A DNA stretch of 64,000 bases. Origin: Naegleria gruberi (taxonomy: Eukaryota). Where the stretch lies: NCBI GenBank assembly GCA_000004985.1, contig GG738872.1, one strand, 5' to 3'. Shown piece by piece: positions 15,640 through 30,309 of this stretch; positions within the stretch are counted from its first letter, which is position 1, and each line of letters opens with the position of its first letter. A program made the position numbers and the translations under genes. The notes beneath the pieces are model-generated. The model was given only the letters and a program-made list of their open reading frames with translations, did no database searches and was not told the origin of the DNA.

Positions 15640-18600
15640 TTATTGTTGAATGGTTGAGTTTGGTCTATTTTCCTTATCACCCAATTGTCTATATTTTTGC
15701 TTGATAGATTCCAAGTCGATGGAACTACTATATCTATTGGTAGCACTATTGGCCTTGATATTGGCAAATCTTTCTCTGAGACTATCAATATTGTTGGTAG
15801 AGGAGAGAGCACTCGAGTAGGTAGAACCATTAATATTGGACAAGCTTCTCATCTTTCTATAATCCTCAATTGATTTTGGTTTGGTATCAAATTGAGAAAT
15901 GGTGGCACTATTTACACTGCTGTAACGAGATAAGATGTTTTGGGAGAGGCTGGAAGTGGCAGGGGTTGTTGTTGGAATTTCCTTGAGAACTGGTCTAACT
16001 TCCTCTGGAGGAGAACTGAATGGCATTTGGTTGACTGAATGATTGACTGTAATGGTTGGAGTTTGTTGTGTAGATTCGAGGGCGACCTTCTTCGATTGTT
16101 CATGAGCAGCAATCTTGGCAACAGATCCAATAATGTACTCTTGGAAAATCTTACCAAATGATGTAGTTCCAAGGAATTCGTTGATTTTAAATTCAGGATG
16201 TTGCACTTGGAATTTGTAAAGCTTATATAATCCAGATCTTGTGGTTTCCTTATTTCCAATTAATGTACAAATTTCCTTGAGTTGATCACTCTCTGATTCA
16301 AACAAGCTGTTGGTGCTATCAGAGGATGTAAAGGTGTTAGTGTTGGTGGAAGAACTAGAAAGAGAGAGGACGTTCAACTCGTGTTCAATGTGAGAAATCA
16401 TAACCTTATTGAGTGTTGTGAGATAGGTTCTCAAAGAGTTTCCTTTCAGCTTGACAAGAGTTTGGATAATAGTCTTGATCATTCTCAAAGGGCTATCATC
16501 CTTGCCTTCAAAGAATGTTGGAGGATTGCTAGAGAGGAAGCTTTGAATATCCAACAATACTGAACCAATTTCAATGATACCAATTGTCTTTTCCAAAGTC
16601 TTAGTGAGCTTGGAGAGACACTTGATAAGTACCTTGGTAAAGCTGGTTGGTTCCTTTTCATGATCGAGGCAGGACTTTTCCAATAAAGTAATCAAGCAAC
16701 TGTAAGCAGTGGTTCTGGAACAATTTTCAAGAATACGAAGAATGAGAGTATTGAGAGCAGCAACCATCTTTTCACCATATTCAATAGTTGGTAACTTGTC
16801 ATTGAGTAAAAGTCTGAGTAAGACTTCTAAAAGATTGAGGAGAGTCTTCTTTTGTACCAATGAGGAAAAGTTTCTAGATTCAAACAAACCCATCATGGTA
16901 TTGATCATAATCTTACAAATTCTTGGACCAGAGAGACCAATAATGACAGAGTCAAAAGCAACCTCAAAGAAGATGGAAAGGGAGTAAACCAATTGTTCTC
17001 TATTCATGGAAATACCCATATCTTGGTATTCAACATGCTTATCAAGAGTCTTCATGGCATTCATAGCATTTTCAAAGTTACTGATTTTAGTGTTAGTGAG
17101 AACTCTAATGATTTGTTCGACAGACATTTGTACATCCTTAGATTGTGGAACAATATTAATCTTCTTTGGAGTTAACAAGGTGGTTGGTGACAATAATAAT
17201 TCTTCAGTAGCAAGCTTTGAGAATTTGAGCTTCTTTGGTGTAGTAAAGACACTATCCTTGACTGTTGAAATGCTTCTCTTTCCTGGAGTAGAAGGAGGAG
17301 ACATTGGACATTCGATTGGTTTTGGGAAGTCCATTTTGAACAAGGAGGATTGAACAAGAGTTTTTCTTGAGCTCTTATCATCTTCAATGACTGGTTGGAC
17401 TGGAGTAGGTTGTGTAACTGTTTTAGATTGGTTTTGCTTTTTCATTTCTCCAATAGTGAGGGAAGAGGAGGATCTTTGCAAAGTTGAAGCAGCTGGTTGG
17501 GTTTGTGGTTGTTGGGCAGGCTTAGTTGGTGGTTGTTCAGCTTTGACTGGTTGAACTTGTTGGACAGTTTGTTGGGCTGCTGCTGTTGGTTGATATTGGT
17601 TTTCATACTTGGAAATAACAGCAATGATGCTACTCTTGGAAGCATTGTTGAGATCTTGACAGAAACTCTTGATAAAATCAGCACCAGTTGTTCTGATAAC
17701 CTTTTCCAAAACTGTTTCAGCAAGTTTTCTTGTGCATGCCTTTGGGTCTTGCAAGCAGTTAATGAGAGGCTTGGCGAGGTGTTGGAGAGTATCCCTAGAT
17801 TTGTTCTTGACTTCCAAAATGTAAGTGTCAATGAATTGGAGAGCATCTCTTCTTCCTTCAGGATGGCCCTTCTCATTGTTCAAAGGCTTGTCCATATACT
17901 TGATAATGTTATCCATATTGAGAGATTTAACAAGTCCTTCTAAAGTTTGGTAAGTAGCAGTTCTGATCACCTTATTGTTGTGAGTGAATTTGGTCACCAA
18001 ATTTTGTAAAATGACTGGACTGAACTTTTCAAATCCACTACCAGCAGCTTCACCAATGAAAACATAAAGTTCCATTGTTGTACTGAGAATCTTGACATTA
18101 GCATCTTCCATTCTCTTCTTCAGAGCTTGAATGAGATTATTAAGATTTGGAGTAATTCTCTTATTAGCTTCAGTGATTATATTCTTGATTTCTTCCAAAG
18201 CTTCCAATCTAGTCTTCCAAGCTTTGTCCTCCAATTCTCCAAGAATCTTTGATGTAATCTTGCCAGAGATATCAGTTCTTGGCAGTAAATCATCAAAAGA
18301 TGGAGCACTACCTGGTTCACCAGACTTACTACTTGTACTAACATTCATACCTCTGACAAACTTGGTTTGTGTAGGTGGAGCATCTGTGAATTTTTGGAAT
18401 TCCTTCTTGATGGAATCCAACAATGCAGGCTTGACATCATTCAAATAATTCAAAAGTCCATCTCCCATAAACTTTTTCATGGAACAGAGAATTTCTGTAG
18501 CGCCAGTCTTGACAGGAGGCTTAGCATTACCCAAACAAACCTTTGAAAAATCAATAATTGACTTGACATCAATAGTTTGCATGGCAAAGTGTTCGATTGT

Positions 18601-19629
18601 AGCAGCCATCCATCCAAGAGTTTCACCAGCAATCTTTGGATTCTTGTGATCCTTAATAATTGGGTAGAGTTGATTAAAGACGAATTGAGGAGAGTACATT
18701 TCAGCAAGCTTGGAAAGACATTGAGTGCAAGGATCTTTCAATTTGGCAGTAGCAATCTTTTCAACAAGTCCTTCAATAACTGTTACAGCAGGCCCAGTTG
18801 AAAGAGTTGAGCAACTGTCCACAATTAACATTACCATTTCAATAACTTTTGACAAATTTTGAACATTTGATTCCTTCCAGCCAGGCTTTGAGTTAAGAGT
18901 TACGACAATAACATCAGCATTACTAGCCATAACATCCTTATCCATTTCTGTTAGGGATTTAGAGAGAGATTCAATTGCTTCCATACGTTCCTTCAATTTA
19001 GAAGAAGATAATGCCTCAACAATGGATGCATCAATAATTTCTGCAATTCTACTTTGAGCCTCCTCAAGGGACACTGTATTTCTAATACTGTTATCAATAG
19101 GTTTGGAAAGTTCCTTCCCACCAGCAGCTTTCTTTTTTGCAGGTGCAGCAGAAGAAGCACCATCTGATTTTCTCTTCTGTGAAGGATTTGGTCTTGAGAG
19201 GGCTGGCTTTTTAAGAGGAGGACGACTAGTTGTTTTTGGTGGTGATGTTGTTATTGTTGTTGTTGACTCGGTAATAGTATCGGCATCAACAGCAGATTCT
19301 TCCTCTGCTATTGTTGCTTCTGTTGTTGTTTTAGATGGTGTTGAAGTTATTGTTGTTTGTGATGATTCCTCCTCTGTATTTGATGATGATGATGATGTTG
19401 TTGCTGCAGTAGTGCTTCGTTTGAATGGACGAGCCTTGTGTTTACGTTGTGGTGGAGGTCGATTGGTTCTTGTGGTTTGGGAAATTCCTCCTGTGGATCC
19501 TTCTTGTTGTAAGGCTTGCTCTAACATTTTTTGGAAGAGAGCATTCGAGTCCAATACATCTACATTTTCGCCATTATCATCGGTGGCTTGATTATTGTTT
19601 GATGTTGTAGGGATTGGCTTGTCTTCCAT
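15640..19629 (-). CDS. Large (about 1329 aa) HEAT/TOG-repeat protein, possibly an XMAP215/Dis1/CLASP-family microtubule regulator, with long Ser/Thr/Pro/Gln-rich linkers.
   Basis: Single long ORF; first ATG (MEDKPIP…) at 19629, the track start 19665 is TTG. The N-terminal ordered region (…LKDPCTQCLSKLAEMYSPQFVFNQLYPIIKDHKNPKIAGETLGWMAATIEHFAMQTIDVKSIIDFSKVCLGNAKPPVKTGATEILCSMKKFMGDGLLNYLNDVKPALLDSIKKEF…) resembles TOG-domain HEAT repeats (…NPKI……KPAL…). Family assignment is tentative. Confidence 0.5.
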   Translation of the reverse strand: MEDKPIPTTSNNNQATDDNGENVDVLDSNALFQKMLEQALQQEGSTGGISQTTRTNRPPPQRKHKARPFKRSTTAATTSSSSSNTEEESSQTTITSTPSKTTTEATIAEEESAVDADTITESTTTITTSPPKTTSRPPLKKPALSRPNPSQKRKSDGASSAAPAKKKAAGGKELSKPIDNSIRNTVSLEEAQSRIAEIIDASIVEALSSSKLKERMEAIESLSKSLTEMDKDVMASNADVIVVTLNSKPGWKESNVQNLSKVIEMVMLIVDSCSTLSTGPAVTVIEGLVEKIATAKLKDPCTQCLSKLAEMYSPQFVFNQLYPIIKDHKNPKIAGETLGWMAATIEHFAMQTIDVKSIIDFSKVCLGNAKPPVKTGATEILCSMKKFMGDGLLNYLNDVKPALLDSIKKEFQKFTDAPPTQTKFVRGMNVSTSSKSGEPGSAPSFDDLLPRTDISGKITSKILGELEDKAWKTRLEALEEIKNIITEANKRITPNLNNLIQALKKRMEDANVKILSTTMELYVFIGEAAGSGFEKFSPVILQNLVTKFTHNNKVIRTATYQTLEGLVKSLNMDNIIKYMDKPLNNEKGHPEGRRDALQFIDTYILEVKNKSRDTLQHLAKPLINCLQDPKACTRKLAETVLEKVIRTTGADFIKSFCQDLNNASKSSIIAVISKYENQYQPTAAAQQTVQQVQPVKAEQPPTKPAQQPQTQPAASTLQRSSSSLTIGEMKKQNQSKTVTQPTPVQPVIEDDKSSRKTLVQSSLFKMDFPKPIECPMSPPSTPGKRSISTVKDSVFTTPKKLKFSKLATEELLLSPTTLLTPKKINIVPQSKDVQMSVEQIIRVLTNTKISNFENAMNAMKTLDKHVEYQDMGISMNREQLVYSLSIFFEVAFDSVIIGLSGPRICKIMINTMMGLFESRNFSSLVQKKTLLNLLEVLLRLLLNDKLPTIEYGEKMVAALNTLILRILENCSRTTAYSCLITLLEKSCLDHEKEPTSFTKVLIKCLSKLTKTLEKTIGIIEIGSVLLDIQSFLSSNPPTFFEGKDDSPLRMIKTIIQTLVKLKGNSLRTYLTTLNKVMISHIEHELNVLSLSSSSTNTNTFTSSDSTNSLFESESDQLKEICTLIGNKETTRSGLYKLYKFQVQHPEFKINEFLGTTSFGKIFQEYIIGSVAKIAAHEQSKKVALESTQQTPTITVNHSVNQMPFSSPPEEVRPVLKEIPTTTPATSSLSQNILSRYSSVNSATISQFDTKPKSIEDYRKMRSLSNINGSTYSSALSSTNNIDSLRERFANIKANSATNRYSSSIDLESIKQKYRQLGDKENRPNSTIQQ

Positions 19630-20369
19630 TTTTTTTGAATTTGTTTGTGGATTGTTTAACACCAACTAACGATCAATTTTTTTAAATTTTGGCGCCATTT
19701 AATTTTGGCGGGCAAACAACTAAAATCTACCAGTCAACTGAATTAATTCTTTCACTTGACAATCAAATAGTGTTATTGGTAATACCTCTCACAAATAATA
19801 TGTAATACAAAACCCATCTCAATAACAAATATTTCGAAATCAATACAGTCAAATGTTATCACTCTACAATTTTTTCACAAGTTATTTCCGCCCAATTTAA
19901 CGATATTCATCAATTTGGCACTCTCTTTCCCCTCTGTGAATTTTCCATTTAAAAGGCATTACTCATTTTTAACTGAATTTTCTGTAAAAGAAGAGAGGAA
20001 TGTTTTTTTGGAGGTTGTGCCGTAAGTACAGTTGGTTCATGGATGATTTGAAGAAAGGGCAGACAAATAACTTGTTGTAAAGACGCACACTAGAGAGTTT
20101 TAACAAGTTAAAAAACAGTGTCAATTGGTTGCTCTCTCTGATCCTCTTTTACTTTCGATTGGTTTCGTATATCGTAGTTATTGGACTAAGAGTATCGACG
20201 ATAGTGGAAGATTTTAAAGGATTTTGGGTAATAATTATTTTATGGGGTAGGTTTTACTTGTCAACGTTCTAGTTCACCTTCTTGCCTGTCAAAAATACAA
20301 AAAAAGGACGAAATATTATCTCTTAAAGTTTTGATGAGAATTGAATAATCAATCAATAGAAAATTATAA
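19630..20369. promoter_or_regulatory. Divergent intergenic region between the TOG-like gene (minus) and the kinase-NACHT gene (plus).
   Basis: Inference from gene arrangement only. Confidence 0.2.
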
Positions 20370-23300
20370 AATGTTAACCCAAAAGTATAATCCCAAGATG
20401 AAACTTGGTAGTGGAGCAGAAGGATTAGTTTATTTAGGTTCGTATACCTATTCGAAATATATATTGACATTAGGAAACATATTATTTCATCATCATCATT
20501 TTCAATAATAATAACAATAATAACAATAATTATCATCATCATCATCGTGATCACAACTCCAGTCGAGGAAAAATCCACCAACAAACTATTCGCCATCAAG
20601 ATGATTACTCTCTTTGAGGAAGAAAATTTTGAAAAGATTAAAAAGGAAGTCGATTTGGTTCGGAAGTTTCATGAACACAACAATATTGTGAGGTATTTTG
20701 ATTATTTTGAGGAGAGAACCATTGATGCTTTTGCAGGTGTTGAATTGAGACTCTTCTTTGTTATGGAATATTGGTAAGTAATTTATATATTTGATTTGTT
20801 ATATATTCAATAATAATAATATTATATTCAAATTTGCTATTATTATTATGTGTTTTTTCAATATCCATTCATCAATGTTATCTTCATATGAAATTGTTAC
20901 TTTACTATGATGATTATGATGATTATATACATATGAAACTCTGATCAATATATTGAACATCATCATCAACATTGATACAATGCATCTCTAATGGATCAAA
21001 TCAATAATAATGCTAATAACATTAACATGATCACCAAATTCTTCAATTCTACAACTGTGATTTTTCTTCATCATATTTGCACATCATCCAATATCCAATT
21101 ATTATCAATTAATAACACTAATAATACTAACAATAACAACAACTACTATAACAACATTCATATAAATAGTGATAAGGGAAGTTTAGAAACCATCATTCAA
21201 GAATATCTCAAGGAAGGACAACATAAGAATAGTGGAAGTGAGGATTTGGCAGCTGATAAGCATCTACCCTTCTCTTTTATAATATCAACTATAAAACAAT
21301 TGACGAGTGTTTTAGTATATATACATAATCAACAAATAGTACATAGAGATGTAAGTCTAGTCCATTAATTTCAAATAGTTGATCATCTTTTTCGAAATGA
21401 TAATGACATAATATGAAACTATAGTTAAAACCTGCCAATTTACTATTCAAAGCTGTATCATCAACAAATATATCCATCACAGAGACAAGTAATGAATCAA
21501 CAACAACAACAACAACAGCTGTTTCCACATCAAAGGAACAACATTCAACAAGTTGTACTTCTATATCAGAAAATGATAATATTATTGAAAATTGTAAAAA
21601 AGAAGCATATAATGATTGGGTACTCAAATTGAGTGATTTTGGATTCACCAAACAAATGAAAGATAATATGGCCCAAAGTTTTGTTGGAACAATCCAATAC
21701 ATGTCACCTGAATTGTTCAGTTCAAAGAAATATGATGCAGGTACTGATATTTGGTCATTTGGTGTTTGTATTTTAAGAATGTTTGCATTTCTGGATGAAA
21801 CCAAAGTTCCAGATCTGAGACATGAAATTAAGAAGGATTCAGAGTTTGTATGTAAATTATGCAAAAAGTATAAGGCTCCTAAGGTGGTTGAGGAGATTGT
21901 CTATGCCTGTCTGTTATTGGATCCAACCGATCGTCCAACAGCTGCAGAGATTTCACAATTTTTGGAAGAGTTTGAGAAGAGTGGAGGAACTGTTTCTCTG
22001 TTAAAGAAGGTTAAATTCACACCACCACCTTCATCACAAAATTTAAATGATCAGAATGGAATGTTGGATGTTTCTATAACGATGGATGATGAATTGTCCT
22101 CCTCTTCATCCTCTGATGGAAGTCTTCCATTGGAAAAGATTATCAATGATAAGGCACGAGAATTTTGGAAGCAACATTCTTGGGAGAGAAGAGTCAATTG
22201 GATGGATTTCAGAGAGGCCTACATTAATCTGATTCAACAATTGAAAATCGAAGAAAAGAAGAATGAAAATAATGAAATTACAACTGAGTCTCCTGGGATT
22301 AATATTAGTTATACAGGAATTTCAATGACTGATTTCATGAGAGGCCTAAAGACTGGCGTATGTAACAAGTATTTCGACACTGTATCAATAGAAGATTTGA
22401 ATGAATTGACAAAGCAAGCTGGTTTCCCGTTCAATCCTGAATATGTGATAAATCTTGCTGCTTACGAGATAACTGACGACAAGGAGGTTGATATTGAAGA
22501 TGTAACAATGGATACTGAAACTTTCATGAGGGCGCAATCCAAATATTTGGAAACTATTCTGACTTGTGATAAGGTATTCATTGATCCAATATCTCAGGAA
22601 CCTCTCCAGATTGATCAACATTTGGCTCCTCTGGAATTGGTTGAAACCAATGAATGGAATGATCTTTTGAAAACCGAACAAGAAATTGAAGAAGACGATG
22701 AAAAGAAAACCAAAGTCGAACGAGGATCGAGTCAATACTATGAAGATGCAGTTGATTTCCTCTCGAGTACCAGTGATAGACCTCTCAAATATCTCATTTT
22801 GGGTTCTGCTGCTTGTGGTAAGACTTGTATGATGAAACGATTGTGCTACAAGGCAGCTCAATCTGCTTACAAGAGGGCTGGTGATACAAATTCATTCGAT
22901 TTGGTTCCACTCATGGTTCCAGTAGCAAATATTCCAGTAGAAGAGCACGACAATATCCCATTCAAACTCAAGTGTATCAGAGCATCGGCTGACACCTTCA
23001 ACAAGGGTCTCAAATATTCTGCAGATGTGGAAAAGTTCCTCTTAAATGTTTGGCAATGTGGACGATTACTCTTATTATTGGATGGCCTTGATGAGGGTGG
23101 AGAGAATAGAGCCAAATTGGAAAAGCAAATTTGCAAGCTCAATTTCAGAGAGTTGGGAGGCATTCTCACCACCAGTAGAGTCAGTGGTTTCGAACAGGAA
23201 GAGGCCAAGAATGTTTTTGATAGTTTCAAGATTGCAAGAATCAAACCACTCACTTATCAAATTCAAAAGCAAGTTGCCTTGAGTAGAGGTCTCAAAGATC

Positions 23301-26179
23301 CAAAATTCTTCCAATCCCTCCAAAAGTATAAGGAATTAGCAAAGATTCCACTACTTTTGAGTTTAATGATTCAAGAATACAAGCAAAATAAGGAATTACC
23401 AGATATTAGATCAGTTCTGTATGACCATGCTTGTGAAACAATGATTTCAGTCTATATCGATAAGGTCAGACCACATACTACCAAACAAGAGAGAAGAGAT
23501 TTATTCGAAATGCTCTATGCTGTTGCAAGTATTTTACACGACAATACTAAACGTTACTTTACGAGTGCCTATATTGAAAAGCACCTCCAGGAAATTACTA
23601 CCATCGTAGACTTGGAGGCCTCAGCCAACAATAGTGTAACAAATGGAAGTCAACCACCACTCTCCTCTCAGTCAATTACCAATGCAAACAATCTTACAGC
23701 TAACGAATCTGGTACAAACTTTTCATCAAGTTCCAGTGAACCAAGTAGAAATGTATACGAAACTTGGAAGACTTTCCATCAAGATATCGATGATGGACAT
23801 TTCCCGCTCATTATTCGATTGGGTAACAATTATTCATTTGCCCACTTGTCATTCCAGGAATATTTCGTTGCCAAAGTGTGGAGTGATGCTAGGAGAGTTT
23901 CAAGAATTAGAGAACAAAAGAAGGGTCGTTTGAATTTCTTCTCGAGAAAGAAGGAAAATCTTCCAATCGTATTTTCCTCAGAAACTAAGAAATTAATTAT
24001 TGATCCATGGTTCAGAGAAACTTTCTTAATCTGTGCTGGATCAATGTCTAGAGATGATTTCAATGAATTTATCAATTACTTGTCTGAAAACTTTAAAAAG
24101 AGTTCTGCCATTGATAATTTACTTCTCCAAATGATTAGAACTGAAAGACCAAGTGATGAGAGGGATCAATACAGTGAAATTGAAAAGAATATTACAACAC
24201 AAAAGAAGTTGAAGAATATGATTTTGGAGGGTTTGATTCACGACTCTTCAGTTTTGAGAGAAATGACAACCAAGAGAGTTGCTCTCTATGAGAGTGACTT
24301 GACCAATGTTATTGCATACTTGTTGAAAGTTGTGACCAAGAATAAGGATAAGACCAAATCAGCCACCCACAGCTTGCTAGATATCTTCCAACAATTGAAA
24401 GACGATAAGGAATTCAGATATAGAACTACCAAACGATTGATTGAATCACTTGCTGACAAACAGTGGAAGATTGGAGAGCAATCAGTCATTGCACTCTTAG
24501 CAATTGCTGAGAAGGAAGATACGAGAATTACTAAAAAGTTGTGGACTCTCATGACCAAGCCACCAATTGAAGTACAAGTCAGAGCATGTTATGCCATTTC
24601 AGTCTTGGCTAAGAGGGGAGACTCCAAGTTTATTAACAAGTTTATGGAGATTTTACTCTCAGAGACAATCAAGGAAGGTCGATATATGGACAAGATGATT
24701 GAGAGCTTGACAAATATTTGTGTCAGGGCAGATGAAATTGTCCTCTCACAAATCAGATCCAACATTAAACAAGCCCAGAACAAGCTCATTCGACACGGAT
24801 TGATTACTGCCCTAGGAAAGATCTCAGCTCCAGGTGATAAGCAAACAATCAAGTTACTCGTTCAAATTCTTTCAAAGGAAAAGTCATCCGATACACTAAC
24901 CTTTGTTGTAGATGCTCTCAAGATGGTTTGTGAAGCGAGAGAAACAACCAACTTGTCCATTGCAATCAAACTCCTCAAGGATCACATTGCATACAGACCA
25001 GATAAGTCTCTACGTGAGGAATACGAAGAATACGAATTTAGTTTCAATGATTTGAATCAAAAGATTATGGAACTCATTCAAGCACTATTGTTGGGCAGAG
25101 AATACTCCAAAAGAGATACCAAAGATATGAGCTTATATGTGAAAGGATTGACTGAACAATTGAATAAGGATAGTAATTTTAAGAAACTTGTTTATGAGCT
25201 CTATGACACCATGTTCACTTTGGCAATTACTGGAGATTCTCAAATAAGAAAGACAACTGTATCTACATTCTCAGCTATGGTTGACCATAATGATGAAGAA
25301 TTGCTAACCTTTATTTTTGACAAGATCAAAAACGACCTTCTCAAGAATATCATGACTGAAGACAAATCTATGGAAATCACAACAGTTATTTTCCTTTTGG
25401 GTGTTGTATTTGCCAATACAGCCAATTCTCAGGCCATTAATGTACTTTTAGAATTGTTAGAATCAAACAGTTCGAATGCTTACTTACTTGGAGAGATTTT
25501 CACAGCCATGGGTAATGTTGCTCCACGCAACGATACCTTCCTTATTGAGATGATGACCAAATATTTGGAAATGGAAAAGGATGCCCACATGCAAGAGAAG
25601 GAATTGTGGAAACTCAAATCGAGAATCATCTCTGCCTTGGAAAATATTTGTCTGAGGGAGGAGAATAATGAAAGACTAGTTACCAAGATGCTCCAATTGT
25701 TGGAAGTGTGTCCTCAAAAATTTTCACATACATTCAAACCAACTTGTATCAAGGCAATTGGAAGACTCTTAAAGAAGGGAGAAAAAGATGCCATCAACAA
25801 ATTGGGACCTTTGGCAGCTGATAAGGATAGTTTCATTAGAAAAGCAGTTGCTTATACTTTGGGATTGATTTCAGATAAGGCCAATAAGAATGCAGTTAGA
25901 GTATTGAAAGATATGTTAGAAGATGAAAATGCAGAAGTTAGACAAGAAGTTATTGAAAGTTTGGGTAAAGTAGCAGATTTAGAGCAGTTGGTGACTTCAC
26001 TCAAGGCCAACATTTCTGAAACTATTAGAACAGCACTTTTCCAAATGATTATCTATCAAATTAGAGAATCGAGACAAGAAAATCCAAAGTTTTCACTTCC
26101 TTCCAAGCAAGTGAAACATTTAGAAAGTTTGAATTGCACAGAAGCCAGATTCATTCTGTTGGAGAATTACAGCGTGTGA
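20370..26179 (+). CDS. Multi-exon gene encoding a tripartite protein of about 1738 aa: N-terminal Ser/Thr protein kinase, central NACHT (STAND P-loop) NTPase, C-terminal HEAT/ARM repeats. Exons 20370..20436, 20563..20773, 21170..21350, 21425..26179; introns of 126, 396 and 74 nt.
   Basis: Kinase motifs are distributed over the four exons in correct order and phase: GSGAEGLVYL|V…AIK, …FFVMEY|CDKGSL, …QQIVHRD|LKPANLLF…LSDFGFTKQ…GTIQYMSPE…DIWSFGVCI. NACHT motifs: Walker A LILGSAACGKTCMMKRL (about 22795-22840), Walker B RLLLLLDGLDEGG (about 23065-23100), ILTTSRVSGFE, IPLLLSLM. C-terminal repeats of the form …AEVRQEVIESLGKVAD… / …IRKAVAYTLGLISDKANKNAV… are HEAT/PBS-lyase-like. All donors are gtaagt/gttcgt and acceptors ag; phases were checked by hand. 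Confidence 0.7.
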
Positions 26180-26272: not shown

Positions 26273-28473
26273 TTATGGATTTTCTTCCAAGTCCTTCAAT
26301 ATTGTTGTGATTGAGTCGTATGTTTCTTTTGTGAGTAATTGTGCTTTGGATTGGTAGATCACAAAGGCCTTTAGGGCAATAATTAGAGAAATGAAAGAGT
26401 TTTCAGGAAGGTCTTTCTTAATGGATTCCCTGTTAGCTTCGTGATCCTTGCACAAACAACCAATAAGAATTGCCAAATAAGAAGTGATGATATTATCTTC
26501 CGTATGTTTAAGACTGCTTCTCAAATCACCCTTCTTTTCATTTTCTTTCTTTTCAGTCGAAACTAAATCCACAATCTCCGCAGCTGCATTGTCACTTCTT
26601 TGGGAATCAGTTGTTGCTTGCTCTGCTACATTAACTGTTTCATCCTCATCTTTGTAGTCTTGTTTGGCATAATATTCCTTGAATAAATCTATTAAAAATT
26701 GTAATAATTTCTTAGTCTTTCCTCTAAATTCAAACTCTTTTGGAATAGGGTAAGAAAAACGTTTTCTCAATACTTACTGAAATTTCTTATTAGCTCTCGA
26801 TTAGTCCAGCTACTATCTGTCATGTTTGAAAGTAAGGCCAAAGACATTGTGAGAATGTCGAAATGTTGTGTATAACTTGAGGCTAAAACAGAACACACTC
26901 CAGAAATACCATTTTCTTCGGCAATTTTGTTGCAAATATCATTATTACAATTGCTGATATTTGTCAAAAAACGTAAAGTGATGAGGGTGCAATCCAACAC
27001 TGGATGGCCATCTTTAAGCTCGCTCAATAAAGATTTGTCTATTTGAAAATGGTAAACCACAAATAATATTCCAAGATCCACTTACTGATTGGTGTCAGAC
27101 AATTCAATAATCTAATAAGAGCAGGTAAGAAATAGTTCCAAGCCTCAGCATTCTTACTTGGGTCTGAAGAGGCATACTTTGTCACAATTCCATTCTTTTC
27201 CAGCATTTTAATACAGTTACACATATCACCAGATATTAGATCATCTCGTTCTTGTTCTAATATTGCCAATAGGCAAGGTACTAATCGCTCTATTGTTTCT
27301 ATACTATTCGATTTAACAAATAACAGGGTTGGTTTGTTCTTGGTTATAAATTCTTCCTTATTGGATGATTGGTGATACTTCAATTCAAAGTTGTAATGCT
27401 CGTAATTTACAATATTTACCATGGCAGATAGAGCCAAGGAAATGGTGGTCTTCTCGAATGTTTTAATGTTGGCATCCTCATCTACTACCTTTTCTTGCTC
27501 TTTTTGAGCTTTCTTTGGTGAGCCTGCTTTGAGAGCTGCCATTCTTGTTCGTTTGGTTCTTTTGATGGAATCCAAGTTTGAAGTTTGTTGCCACTTTAAC
27601 ACATGGTGCTGTTTGATAATTTCATGGAGTGTGACGAATGAGGTTTCAGTTGCATATTCAGCATTCAGAGGATCTTTAAGGAGAATCCCTATAATTTGAG
27701 CAGCTGTCAATGAAAGTAATTGTTGCTTTTCAAAATCAATGACTGTGCATAGAGTTTCAACCATAGACTTAACCATGGAGTGACTAGGGACATTATTGAA
27801 TAAATAATGAAACAAATTCTTATCAAACTTACGCTCTGAGGAAAATTCCCAAATCATTTCCTTCCTGTGAAAACATTTGTGCAAGTGAGCTAGCACTTGA
27901 ACATTTAATATCCAAAGATCTAGAATTGAGTCCACCTAAATAGTTTAAAATACTCTCCTTCTTATCCAACTCCTTTCCTGAAACCTTAATTGAAGTTGAT
28001 GACATTCTCTTTTGTTTTTTGAGTGCTCTAATTTCCTTTTCTCCATATTCATCTTCTGATGAAGAATAATCAAAAACGTCATCAAAAAGATCATCGGAGA
28101 AGAAGTTATCCTCAGCAGATGATGATTTCTTTCCTGGTGATTTTGAATTTGGTGTTTTTGGAGTTTTTGGTGTGCCAACTTTTGGACTCTTGCTTGGTGT
28201 TGATTTTGATGAAGATGGTTTCGGACTCTTCTTTGGAGTTGATGGTAATTTTGATTGTGATGATGAATCAAGGCTTGAACGTTTCTTTGTCTTTTCCTTC
28301 AAAGTTTCATCAAATACATTCTCACCGAAAATGTCATCATCACTCTTTCTTCTGGTACGTTTCTTCTTCTTTTCATCATCACTGTTAATATCATTGAAGA
28401 GGGAGACTTTTTTCGAGTTGGGTGAACTCTCCACTTTGACAAGCACTGGATTCTTCTTTTTAAACGTCCTCAT
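26273..28473 (-). CDS. WAPL: WAPL (wings apart-like) cohesin release factor ortholog. Four exons: complement(27833..28473), complement(27086..27783), complement(26778..27038), complement(26273..26736); very short introns of 49, 47 and 41 nt.
   Basis: Lys-rich disordered N-terminus, then conserved WAPL-domain blocks that align with animal WAPL: ESILNYLGGLNSRSLDIKCSSASSLAQMF…FLRA|HSMVKSMVETLCTV (human DDVVYLLDGL…LSVISLATKC…HLRAHGMVAMV), HPVLDCTLITLRFLTNISNCNNDIC (human [20 protein letters not shown]), TSYLAILIGCLCKDHEANRESIKKDLPENSFISL (human [34 protein letters not shown]). The four ORF-track fragments (27829..28473, 27039..27935, 26767..27081, 26273..26770) are joined by gtaagt donors with consistent phases. 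Confidence 0.7.
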
Positions 28474-28704
28474 CTTTTTTACAATATTAAATTAAATTAA
28501 TTCTTGTTGTTAAATATTTCTTCCGAAAATGTTGATTGATCCGATTCGAGAAGCTATGCAGAAGAATTATTGTTATTTTTTTCTATATTTTTTGGGAATC
28601 GACGAGTTTTGGCGCCAAACATTTTTAAATATTTTTGTAAACATTAAAGATTATAATAGCATTAATACAACATCATTCAAACATCAAGGAACAACATTAA
28701 AAAA

Positions 28705-30309
28705 ATGCAACAAACTTCATCTCCTTCTGCCTTCACCCAACATCACCACTATTCCCTTCAATCGGTTCAAGTTTCTTCCTTTGATTTATCCAAGAGAGCC
28801 GTCGAAAGTGGTCGAATGGATCCCGAGAAATTTGACCAAGAATTTTCTTCAAATCCTTCATCAGCTTCATCTTTAAATGAATCAAATGATTTGATTGGAC
28901 AATCAATTCCAATTTTTGAAACTTCCTTCCGAAGGGATCGTTATCAGAAAATTGTTGAACAAAAAGGATCGAGTTTGAATTTGTGGCCAAATTTTGCAAA
29001 GTGTATGTTTTTTAGAATCGAGTGATGAGGAATTTAATATTTGTGTCGATTCGGATGATGTGATGGAATTTGTATTAATATGAATTTTTAATCGAATGGA
29101 AAATTTGTTGGTGGGTTTTTTAGTTTATCAAGCAAGAGATTTTAAAGCTGGAGAATATAAAACGAGTAAGTTTTAGGAATTAATGATGTAGGAATGGCTA
29201 ATGGATGAAATAGTTATTGAAATTGATTGTAAAACTTCAGAAAGTGTAAGTGTGATTTGGTAGTTTATTCTGATTGACTGATTGTTTCGAATAGCCATCA
29301 TCATTCTTAATGTATTTCATGTCTAGATTCAATTCATACTCTCATAAATATGTAGTTCCAATCCTAGACACATACATTACAAAGAATTCCTGTTGTATTG
29401 TTACTCCTTACTACACTCAGGGAAGTATGCTTCGTTTACTCAAGACAAGATTGGAAAAGCAGAAATTCCTCAAAATTCAACAAATTTTGTGCTATTTTTC
29501 TCAATTATTGGAAGCTATTAATTATATTCATACTAATTTAAAGACAACTGTATGTATTGGAATGATTGAAAAATATGTAACCAATTTTTTATCCATATTT
29601 ATTCGAATTGGATGGCATAATACACTGAATCAACATAAAGATGTATGGTGGAATTTCCTTAGATAACATTTTTATGGATGAAACTCTGGAGAATATTTCC
29701 TTGGGTTATGTTGGAATTCACATTCATACCATGAATTTATATCTGAACAATTATTTCAACAAGTCAGAATTGTCCATGCTTGGTGGAGCCAACTTGTTGC
29801 AATCAAAATCAGAAACGACCTATAATTCCAATAACTCTTCTGATGATCTCGATGAAAAGCAAGTTGATAATCCAGAACAGCTCACTAAAAACGATGAAAT
29901 TAAGGAAATTATTTCCAAATCCTCAACTACAAATGAAGAACTAGCTGGATGGCAATATTTGGATGTTTATGCTTGTGCCATTTCAATTTATCAATTAGTG
30001 ACACTCTCCCTTGATATGTCCTCTGAGGAATCTCAAAATATTGACAAGAACTCAATTCAAGCCTCTTATACCTATCAATTAGTAAGAACTTTGCAACAAC
30101 AGCAACAATTATCAGAAGAAGAATTATCATATTGGAAGGAATATATCAAAAATAAGATTGGAAGAGTATATCACAATAAGAAACTCATCAATTTATTAAC
30201 TGAAATGCTCAATATCAGTCAATCCAAATTAACAGCTCAAATGTGCATCAAATTACTGAAAGAAATTCCACCAGAAGACGATGACGATGAAGAAAATGCT
30301 CACTACTAG
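28705..30309 (+). CDS. Protein-kinase-like gene, predicted pseudokinase (catalytic-loop HRD replaced by HTN). Five exons: 28705..29002, 29124..29165, 29214..29245, 29295..29549, 29641..30309.
   Basis: Kinase-fold landmarks in order: strand-3-like …FYQARDFKAGEYKTIIEIDCK…; subdomain IV-V …KYVVPILDTYITKNSCCIVTPYYTQGSMLRLL; VIa …QQILCYFSQLLEAINYIHTNLK (where HRDLK is expected); VIb-like ISLDNIFMDE; IX DVYACAISIYQLVTLSL. No DFG or APE recognised. Introns all have gtatgt/gtaagt donors. The exon 2/3 micro-exons (42 and 32 nt) are less certain. Confidence 0.5.

Follow-up and report, generated by a model that had tools for sequence, protein, structure and literature searches.

NACHT and other STAND proteins are best known as switches of immunity and cell death in animals, fungi, plants (as NB-ARC proteins) and bacteria, and to our knowledge almost nothing is on record about them in Discoba. 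ROCO kinases, such as LRRK2 and Dictyostelium Roco, join a Ser/Thr kinase, a nucleotide switch and solenoids of the ARM/HEAT type, and their kinase is controlled by nucleotide state and self-association. The NLRs of fungi form large and variable repertoires, in which near-identical repeats subject to diversifying selection are frequent; in rare cases a Pkinase domain stands at their N-terminus, and HEAT is a recognised type of STAND repeat (PMC4986451). NACHT/HEAT architectures have been described in fungi and in Rickettsiales (PMC12258605), and bacterial NACHT proteins carry HEAT, LRR or TPR sensors, with repeated transfers from bacteria to eukaryotes proposed by Kibby et al. (bioRxiv 10.1101/2022.07.19.500537). 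Ser/Thr/Tyr kinases are also found as effectors in vWA-based NTP-dependent bacterial conflict systems, some of which contain STAND NTPases (PMC7159879). The gene considered here lies on the plus strand of a 64,000-nt stretch of Naegleria gruberi contig GG738872.1 (assembly GCA_000004985.1; the whole stretch is called the window below) and encodes, in a single polypeptide, a Ser/Thr protein kinase, a predicted EF-hand-like middle domain, a NACHT module and a HEAT solenoid.

What is new is a conserved four-part kinase/EF-like/NACHT/HEAT family under constraint in deep-branching eukaryotes; the protein itself is already in a public database, where it is uncharacterised. The original prediction, made from the letters of the DNA, had described an NLR-like layout of effector, NOD and repeats in an AT-rich, protist-like genome; one gene with these three domain types is confirmed, and its count of three parts has to be raised to four, an EF-hand-like domain being found between kinase and NACHT. 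The working regarded as fairly probable, by analogy with described switches, is that of a ligand-gated, nucleotide-dependent oligomerising kinase that would answer a conserved signal.

The window is AT-rich (G+C 30-38%) and contains short GT..AG introns. The coding sequence of 5214 nt, corresponding to 1737 codons and a stop, results from four exons joined through three GT..AG introns of 125, 396 and 74 nt, whose 5' ends are GTTCGT, GTAAGT and GTAAGT, respectively:

20371..20437, plus strand: exon 1, with the start codon and the Gly-rich loop GSGAEG of the kinase (residues 13-18)
20438..20562, plus strand: intron 1, 125 nt, GT..AG, phase 1
20563..20773, plus strand: exon 2, kinase N-lobe with FAIK (K35) and the region of the alphaC Glu, up to MEY
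20774..21169, plus strand: intron 2, 396 nt, GTAAGT..AG, phase 2
21170..21350, plus strand: exon 3, from the kinase hinge to the catalytic loop, ending in HRD (D153)
21351..21424, plus strand: intron 3, 74 nt, GTAAGT..AG, phase 0, splitting HRD from LKPANL
21425..26179, plus strand: exon 4, one open frame of 4755 nt with kinase C-lobe, linker, EF-hand-like domain, NACHT, HEAT and the stop

The spliced translation coincides residue by residue (100% identity, 100% coverage) with the deposited "predicted protein [Naegleria gruberi]" (P0001), which shows that the spliced model agrees with the public annotation. Position 20371 is the first ATG, an in-frame stop lies upstream of 20341, and the protein of Naegleria lovaniensis begins at the equivalent place; the coordinates of the original prediction were right within one base, the ATG being at 20371 instead of 20370 and intron 1 starting at 20438 instead of 20437. 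Stops are encountered on reading through introns 1 and 2. The peptides across the junctions restore canonical subdomains of the kinase and recur in more remote relatives; in particular, the motif VMEY/CDKGSLE across the junction of exons 2 and 3 is kept in four aligned proteins. Exon 4 is recovered as a single tblastn high-scoring segment pair for residues 154-1737: it opens at LKPANL of the catalytic loop, continues through DFG and SPE, the NACHT motifs and the HEAT region, and is open throughout the genomic sequence, with neither stop nor frameshift between the domains. Since the kinase C-lobe, the NACHT and the HEAT parts share one uninterrupted exon, the locus does not consist of two merged genes.

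The N. lovaniensis orthologue (P0002, 1695 aa) is 69% identical and colinear end to end, and its locus (L001) also has four exons, the three introns falling at matching codon positions (the Gly-loop region, MEY/C and HRD/LKP). The introns of the two species differ in length and are without similarity in sequence, the one at HRD/LKP being 282 nt long in N. lovaniensis (GTAAGT..CAG). The proposal that four exons assemble into one protein is thus upheld by the intact frame, the deposited protein and the shared intron positions, and the locus is, as judged from its sequence, a real, intact, expressed-type N. gruberi gene for a single protein.

The central region is a true NACHT module in which every switch residue is preserved, because remote matches, a 28-sequence alignment and an NLR-like Foldseek ranking agree. 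Its parts, from a strand preceding the nucleotide-binding domain (NBD) to helical domain 1 (HD1), the winged-helix domain (WHD) and helical domain 2 (HD2), are the following, with invariance referring to that alignment:

22508..24160, plus strand: NACHT module, residues 515-1065, pre-NBD strand, NBD, HD1, WHD and HD2
22802..22825, plus strand: Walker A GSAACGKT (K619), residues 613-620, G..GK invariant
23066..23095, plus strand: Walker B LLLLLDGLDE, residues 701-710, with D706, the tiny G707, D709 and E710, DG.DE invariant
23168..23179, plus strand: sensor-1 TTSR (R738), residues 735-738, Arg invariant
23348..23368, plus strand: PLLLSLM helix motif of HD1, residues 795-801, P.LL invariant
23606..23740, plus strand: S/N-rich low-complexity insert, residues 881-925, inside the WHD region
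23837..23863, plus strand: winged-helix motif FAHLSFQEY (H960), residues 958-966, nearly invariant, aligned to NLRC4 KYKFFHKSFQEY

All motifs that had been quoted for a NACHT-type STAND NTPase are therefore present, with support from fold and alignment, and the invariant or near-invariant columns are the NACHT landmarks themselves, namely G..GK, DG.DE, the sensor-1 Arg, P.LL and F.H..QEY..A. DGxDE is a signature of the NACHT type and motifs such as FAHLSFQEY carry the nucleotide-sensing His of NLRs; the pairing of Walker A with a Walker B that contains a tiny residue is said to be diagnostic of NACHT, reportedly since Koonin and Aravind in 2000 and Leipe in 2004. The remote sequence matches to residues 534-1125 carry PF05729 in 24 of 24 cases. 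In the AlphaFold model of residues 380-1130, with a predicted local distance difference test (pLDDT) of 76.6, the top 35 Foldseek matches in the PDB are animal NLRs (NLRC4, NLRP3, NOD2, other NLRPs and NAIP5-NLRC4; E 1e-9 to 3e-6) and Apaf-1 comes next (E 1e-5); the modelled NBD-HD1-WHD-HD2 fold resembles NACHT proteins more than it does NB-ARC or other STAND/AAA+ proteins. The insert at 881-925 is disordered in the model (pLDDT <50) and of variable length, its identity between the two Naegleria species being 43%, and resembles in nature the insert of the kinase described below. A segment, FIDPISQEPLQID, was tried as a U-box-like motif and rejected, as it forms a strand just upstream of the P-loop domain in the model; many NACHT proteins have a strand segment in this position.

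The N-terminal domain matches Pkinase (PF00069) with 149.9 bits against a cut-off of 31.7 (E 1.1e-43), the match being split in two by an insert. Beside the Gly-rich loop and K35, the motifs HRDLKPANL (151-159, with N158), DFG (224-226, with D224) and SPE (247-249) are present, and K35, D153, N158, D224 and SPE are conserved in the aligned relatives. The features that follow the catalytic loop are:

21449..21619, plus strand: T/S/N-rich low-complexity insert, residues 162-218, between the catalytic loop and DFG
21635..21970, plus strand: kinase C-lobe with DFG, activation loop, SPE, DIWSFG and DRPTA, the domain ending near residue 335

The complete kinase with a T/S/N-rich insert that had been predicted is thus found, and the kinase is active-looking, of the eukaryotic Ser/Thr and RD type, with Ser/Thr in the activation loop. 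Its best PDB matches are CDPK, PAK5/6, NEK2, IKK and STE20-type kinases (E 1e-25 to 1e-21); the five types score alike and no family stands out in this comparison. NEK, the label of the Acrasis record, was therefore not adopted as the family, no kinase family being clearly closest. The best kinase matches outside the family are ~23-28% identical and no close stand-alone paralogue occurs among the matches. The insert is a coding, Naegleria-specific low-complexity loop: it contains no in-frame stop over 57 codons (P ~0.005 at the stop density of the gene's own introns), its counterpart at the same site in N. lovaniensis is shorter, in-frame and Ser-rich, and Acrasis, P0038 and other relatives are without it. 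The idea of a missed intron was rejected on the stop-free codons, on the lack, by inspection, of an in-frame GT..AG pair, and on the in-frame length variant of N. lovaniensis.

The remaining parts of the protein flank the NACHT module on both sides:

22121..22480, plus strand: middle domain, EF-hand-pair-like, residues 386-505, between kinase and NACHT, with invariant FW..W..W.DF..AY and GFPF
24161..26176, plus strand: HEAT-repeat alpha-solenoid, residues 1066-1737 (672 aa), 36 helices
26141..26176, plus strand: conserved C-terminal tail EARFILLENYSV, residues 1726-1737

The HEAT arm matches HEAT_2 (PF13646, 67.1 bits against a cut-off of 27.7) and HEAT (PF02985, 30 against 23.5), and the AlphaFold2 model of residues 1066-1737 (pLDDT 87.8, predicted template modelling score 0.77) shows the 36 helices and finds SF3B1, the PP2A A subunit, importin-beta family members, Rpn2 and CAND1 in Foldseek. 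The HEAT/ARM-like repeats of the original prediction are therefore confirmed as a HEAT solenoid, whereas their extent, given there as more than 700 aa, comes to 672 aa in the model. HEAT had also appeared there as an unusual repeat arm for a NACHT protein; this does not hold, given precedents in fungi and Rickettsiales (PMC4986451, PMC12258605) and in bacteria (bioRxiv 10.1101/2022.07.19.500537).

The middle domain occurs in all lineages of the family, with its invariant residues taken from a ten-member alignment (A4). It is predicted as helix-strand-helix twice (AlphaFold2, pLDDT 73-94), its loops are by eye without canonical Ca-binding residues, and it may be called EF-hand-like on weak matches. 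In the tail, which is present in every member, E1726, F1729, I1730 and E1733 are invariant (E..FIL.EN.. in a nine-member alignment, A5), and an IR..R..N motif that precedes it is kept across most of the family, while the HEAT repeats around it are ~22% identical to those of distant members; the tail may be a docking or autoinhibitory peptide.

An exhaustive NACHT profile search of 1.84 billion representatives returned 19 clusters at E<1e-30, below which a continuum of ~10,000 NACHT proteins extends. Most of the best-scoring full-length members keep the order kinase, middle domain, NACHT, HEAT. The same architecture, spread over no fewer than two or three ancient lines of paralogues, is found in two proteins of Willaertia magna (ABK040_000099, 1738 aa, and ABK040_007994, 2009 aa) and in N. 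fowleri FDP41_004050 (1948 aa), and in Acrasis kona it is divided between two partial records (P0037 and P0075). All catalytic kinase residues are kept in every family member examined. The gene was also recognised on several eukaryote-like contigs from metagenomes and the SRA, which suggests further uncultured heterolobosean-like hosts of the family. On one contig (L003, 5270-9876) the kinase N-lobe is broken by introns and followed by one long exon, and on another (L002, 2635-7270) one gene call covers kinase C-lobe and NACHT and the following call the HEAT part; both genes had been cut into pieces by a prokaryotic gene caller.

In a rough neighbour-joining tree at least three lineages are seen. 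Willaertia is represented in two, of which one also contains N. gruberi and N. lovaniensis and the other N. fowleri. From the cluster search and the tree, the family appears old and small in Heterolobosea. No paralogue of the gene was found by tblastn elsewhere in the window. A word-index homologue search with the HEAT region gave no match, long relatives probably having been filtered out: the same kind of search with the NACHT region missed the query's own protein, and the matches in all three such searches were roughly of query length. The long relatives were recovered by the exhaustive profile search instead. In the literature searched, no link in substance between NACHT and Heterolobosea or Naegleria was found, and the Acrasis genome paper makes no mention of NLR or NB-ARC, its occurrences of "stand", "heat" and "innate immun" being unrelated.

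The mode of evolution can be followed in the identities of single segments between N. gruberi and N. lovaniensis:

kinase C-lobe: 84%
middle domain: 65%
NBD: 76%
HD1-WHD: 85%
HEAT block 1: 81%
HEAT block 2: 63%
HEAT block 3: 69%

The nonsynonymous divergence (dN) between the two species is 0.10-0.28 per segment and the synonymous one (dS) is saturated, >1.4 or undefined. When Naegleria is compared with Willaertia, the HEAT region is 42% and the NACHT region 32% identical, HEAT being the more conserved, and no near-identical or homogenised tandem repeats occur in the HEAT-coding DNA. These comparisons indicate purifying selection along the whole length and an evolution that looks unlike that of a diversifying immune sensor; of the strict NLR hallmarks, neither lineage-specific expansion nor a diversifying sensor is apparent.

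For the working of the protein, a mechanism can be borrowed from NLRC4, NLRP3, NOD2 and the STAND class as a whole. At rest, the HEAT arm would be folded back, keeping the NACHT module ADP-bound and closed, with the winged-helix H960 and R738 touching the nucleotide. A ligand or partner on the HEAT arm would determine its release, followed by the exchange of ADP for ATP and the oligomerisation of NACHT modules; the N-terminal RD-type kinases, clustered in this way, would trans-autophosphorylate and, in turn, phosphorylate downstream targets. The whole would be the cis-fused equivalent of NOD1/2 recruiting RIPK2. Given a slowly evolving sensor arm and a small family, the signal is most likely conserved, either an endogenous state or a conserved microbial molecule, and not a fast-changing pathogen effector.

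Several observations weigh against this picture of a NACHT-switched, EF-hand-bearing kinase. The original expectation that the central region would score in NACHT profiles is borne out in full in relatives and in part in the gene itself, since PF05729 reaches 22.1 bits in N. gruberi (E 1.5e-4), below the cut-off of 26.7, while N. lovaniensis (P0002, 27.4 bits) and Acrasis kona (P0037, 27.9 bits) lie above it. When the NACHT region was compared with PDB sequences, neither the single sequence nor a profile built from 4 sequences found a significant match, NLRC4 coming closest at E 0.46. For the middle domain, matches to the EF-hand-like Cbl_N2 are weak, occur in 6 of 10 members, are all below cut-off (best E 0.0054), and CBL chains appear in the PDB profile search at E ~0.6. 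The saturated dS, undefined in most segments, makes dN/dS qualitative only. Oligomerisation, nucleotide cycling, kinase activity and HEAT autoinhibition are all inferred by analogy. Slow evolution is also compatible with an immune role, NOD1 and NOD2 being conserved too.

The last point touches the alternative towards which the original prediction had leaned, a receptor of innate immunity or cell death engaged in an arms race, whose HEAT arm would detect molecules of intracellular bacteria or giant viruses and whose kinase would trigger defence or death. Naegleria encounters many intracellular microbes, the layout is the tripartite one of NLRs and the nearest folds are those of immune NLRs of animals; NACHT proteins, moreover, defend bacteria, fungi and animals (bioRxiv 10.1101/2022.07.19.500537; PMC4986451). 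Such a receptor is nevertheless unlikely here, as its sensor should be the changing part, and instead HEAT block 1 is nearly as conserved between the two species as the kinase C-lobe, the whole HEAT region is better conserved than NACHT towards Willaertia, and the repeat units lack near-identity and show no homogenisation. The single 1:1 orthologue at 69% identity, the low dN, a small, old family without lineage-specific expansion, a window without a paralogue cluster and the failure of PADLOC defence NACHT models to match point the same way. The strong purifying selection over the full length and the conserved orthologues that speak against an arms race would suit a constitutive scaffold, in which NACHT and HEAT form a platform for a housekeeping kinase of the cytoskeleton, the cell cycle or the amoeba-to-flagellate differentiation and the decisive step is something other than regulated oligomerisation; scaffolding is a typical function of HEAT solenoids, as in PP2A-A and importins, and the kinase loosely resembles NEK, PAK and STE20 kinases. 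A scaffold, however, leaves the conservation of the Walker A Lys, the Walker B Asp with its DE pair, the sensor-1 Arg and the winged-helix His in very distant relatives without a reason; these nucleotide-switch residues are kept, and therefore the switch is argued to be in use and the scaffold is considered quite improbable.

The kinase could also be an integrated decoy or sensor instead of the output, a role suggested for kinases at the C-terminus of certain NLRs in fungi and plants, and integrated kinase decoys are indeed reported in fungal NLRs (PMC12258605). In the Naegleria protein it occupies the N-terminal effector position and is the sole candidate output domain, its catalytic residues are maintained throughout the members examined, and a close stand-alone kinase is lacking among the matches (none above ~28%), so that a decoy is very improbable. 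Finally, the deposited records are computational predictions, from which an annotation artefact of two merged genes, or a pseudogene, might be suspected; the 4755-nt open exon that joins kinase C-lobe, NACHT and HEAT, the recurrence of the layout in N. lovaniensis (with shared intron positions), Willaertia, N. fowleri and metagenome contigs, and a dN far below dS have effectively refuted this. The ligand-gated, nucleotide-dependent kinase with a conserved signal hence remains the favoured reading.

A more far-reaching proposal, which is doubtful, is that of an old, self-contained sensor-to-kinase immune module, in which a NACHT-HEAT receptor for a conserved microbial or danger signal was fused to its output kinase; the NACHT-HEAT part, perhaps bacterial, would have been joined to the kinase and the EF-hand-like domain before the split of Naegleria, Willaertia and Acrasis. 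If true, Discoba, which are among the deepest branches of the eukaryotes, evolved innate signalling from NLR to kinase on their own. The bacterial origin of the NACHT-HEAT part is only a hypothesis.

As to the surroundings of the gene, the upstream neighbour at 15640-19665 on the minus strand is a 1341-aa open frame with TOG domains of the XMAP215/CLASP type (E 2e-20), a microtubule regulator; upstream of the N. lovaniensis orthologue COG3 is found instead, and synteny breaks there. Downstream, at 26273-28500 on the minus strand, lies a conserved multi-exon gene with a syntenic counterpart in N. lovaniensis (L001 16025-18260); no Pfam match was obtained in the two open reading frame pieces tested. 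Window positions 29286-29799 show ~70% protein-level similarity to a protein-kinase gene of N. lovaniensis (L001 25287-25770), which is located ~9 kb downstream of the orthologue. The comparison suggests a neighbourhood rearranged but related between the two species.

The interest of the gene resides in a complete effector-NACHT-repeat protein in Naegleria, all parts of which are kept across Naegleria, Willaertia and Acrasis. The fusion of the kinase in cis makes the induced-proximity model of STAND signalling unusually testable, with kinase activity as a direct read-out. The protein is also a counter-example to the equation of an NLR-like layout with an arms-race receptor, its sensor arm being among the most conserved parts. 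The practical value is modest because the protein is already deposited and each pairwise combination of its domains has precedent.

In comparison with described systems, the animal NACHT NLRs, of which NOD1 and NOD2 signal via RIPK2, are ~12-16% identical to the Naegleria protein. The repeat arm of the latter is made of HEAT and not of LRR, no LRR match being found by Pfam or fold comparison; an extra EF-hand-like domain is present, and the protein, whose kinase is fused in cis, dispenses with a CARD or PYD adaptor domain. Fungal NLRs share the order effector-NACHT-repeat, and both a C-terminal HEAT type and an N-terminal Pkinase are known among them (PMC4986451, PMC12258605). In contrast to the fungal repertoires, the Naegleria family is small, its repeats are old and diverged, and selection on it is purifying.

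Bacterial NACHT proteins resemble the Naegleria protein in that the remote matches are NACHT NTPases, mostly on metagenome contigs, that look bacterial, some with HEAT_2 arms (e.g., P0050); the Naegleria HEAT repeats match HEAT_2 as well, and those of a Willaertia paralogue (P0066) also the PBS-lyase model (HEAT_PBS). The identity to them is 17-22%, and the Naegleria gene differs in its spliceosomal introns and its eukaryotic kinase. Among the PADLOC models no bNACHT matched, HEAT-ARM_XIII alone giving a hit (E 1.6e-7), and membership of the bacterial defence NACHT systems was rejected since no PADLOC NACHT model was matched.

ROCO kinases are alike in the outline of their working, with kinase, switch and solenoid in one large polypeptide, but their switch is a Roc-COR GTPase and not NACHT, and the order of domains differs. 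Membership of the ROCO family was rejected, the Roc match (E 0.22) covering 30 residues of the P-loop only and COR being absent. The nearest named NACHT relative outside Heterolobosea is CAK9092772.1 of Durusdinium trenchii (P0104, 3765 aa; E 1.5e-19), which combines a kinase-like TCAD9/APH domain with NACHT and HEAT_2. Its kinase-like domain belongs to another family, it has a second STAND module (NPHP3_N) and the NACHT identity is ~24%; it is another combination of kinase-like domain, NACHT and HEAT, in an unrelated protist.

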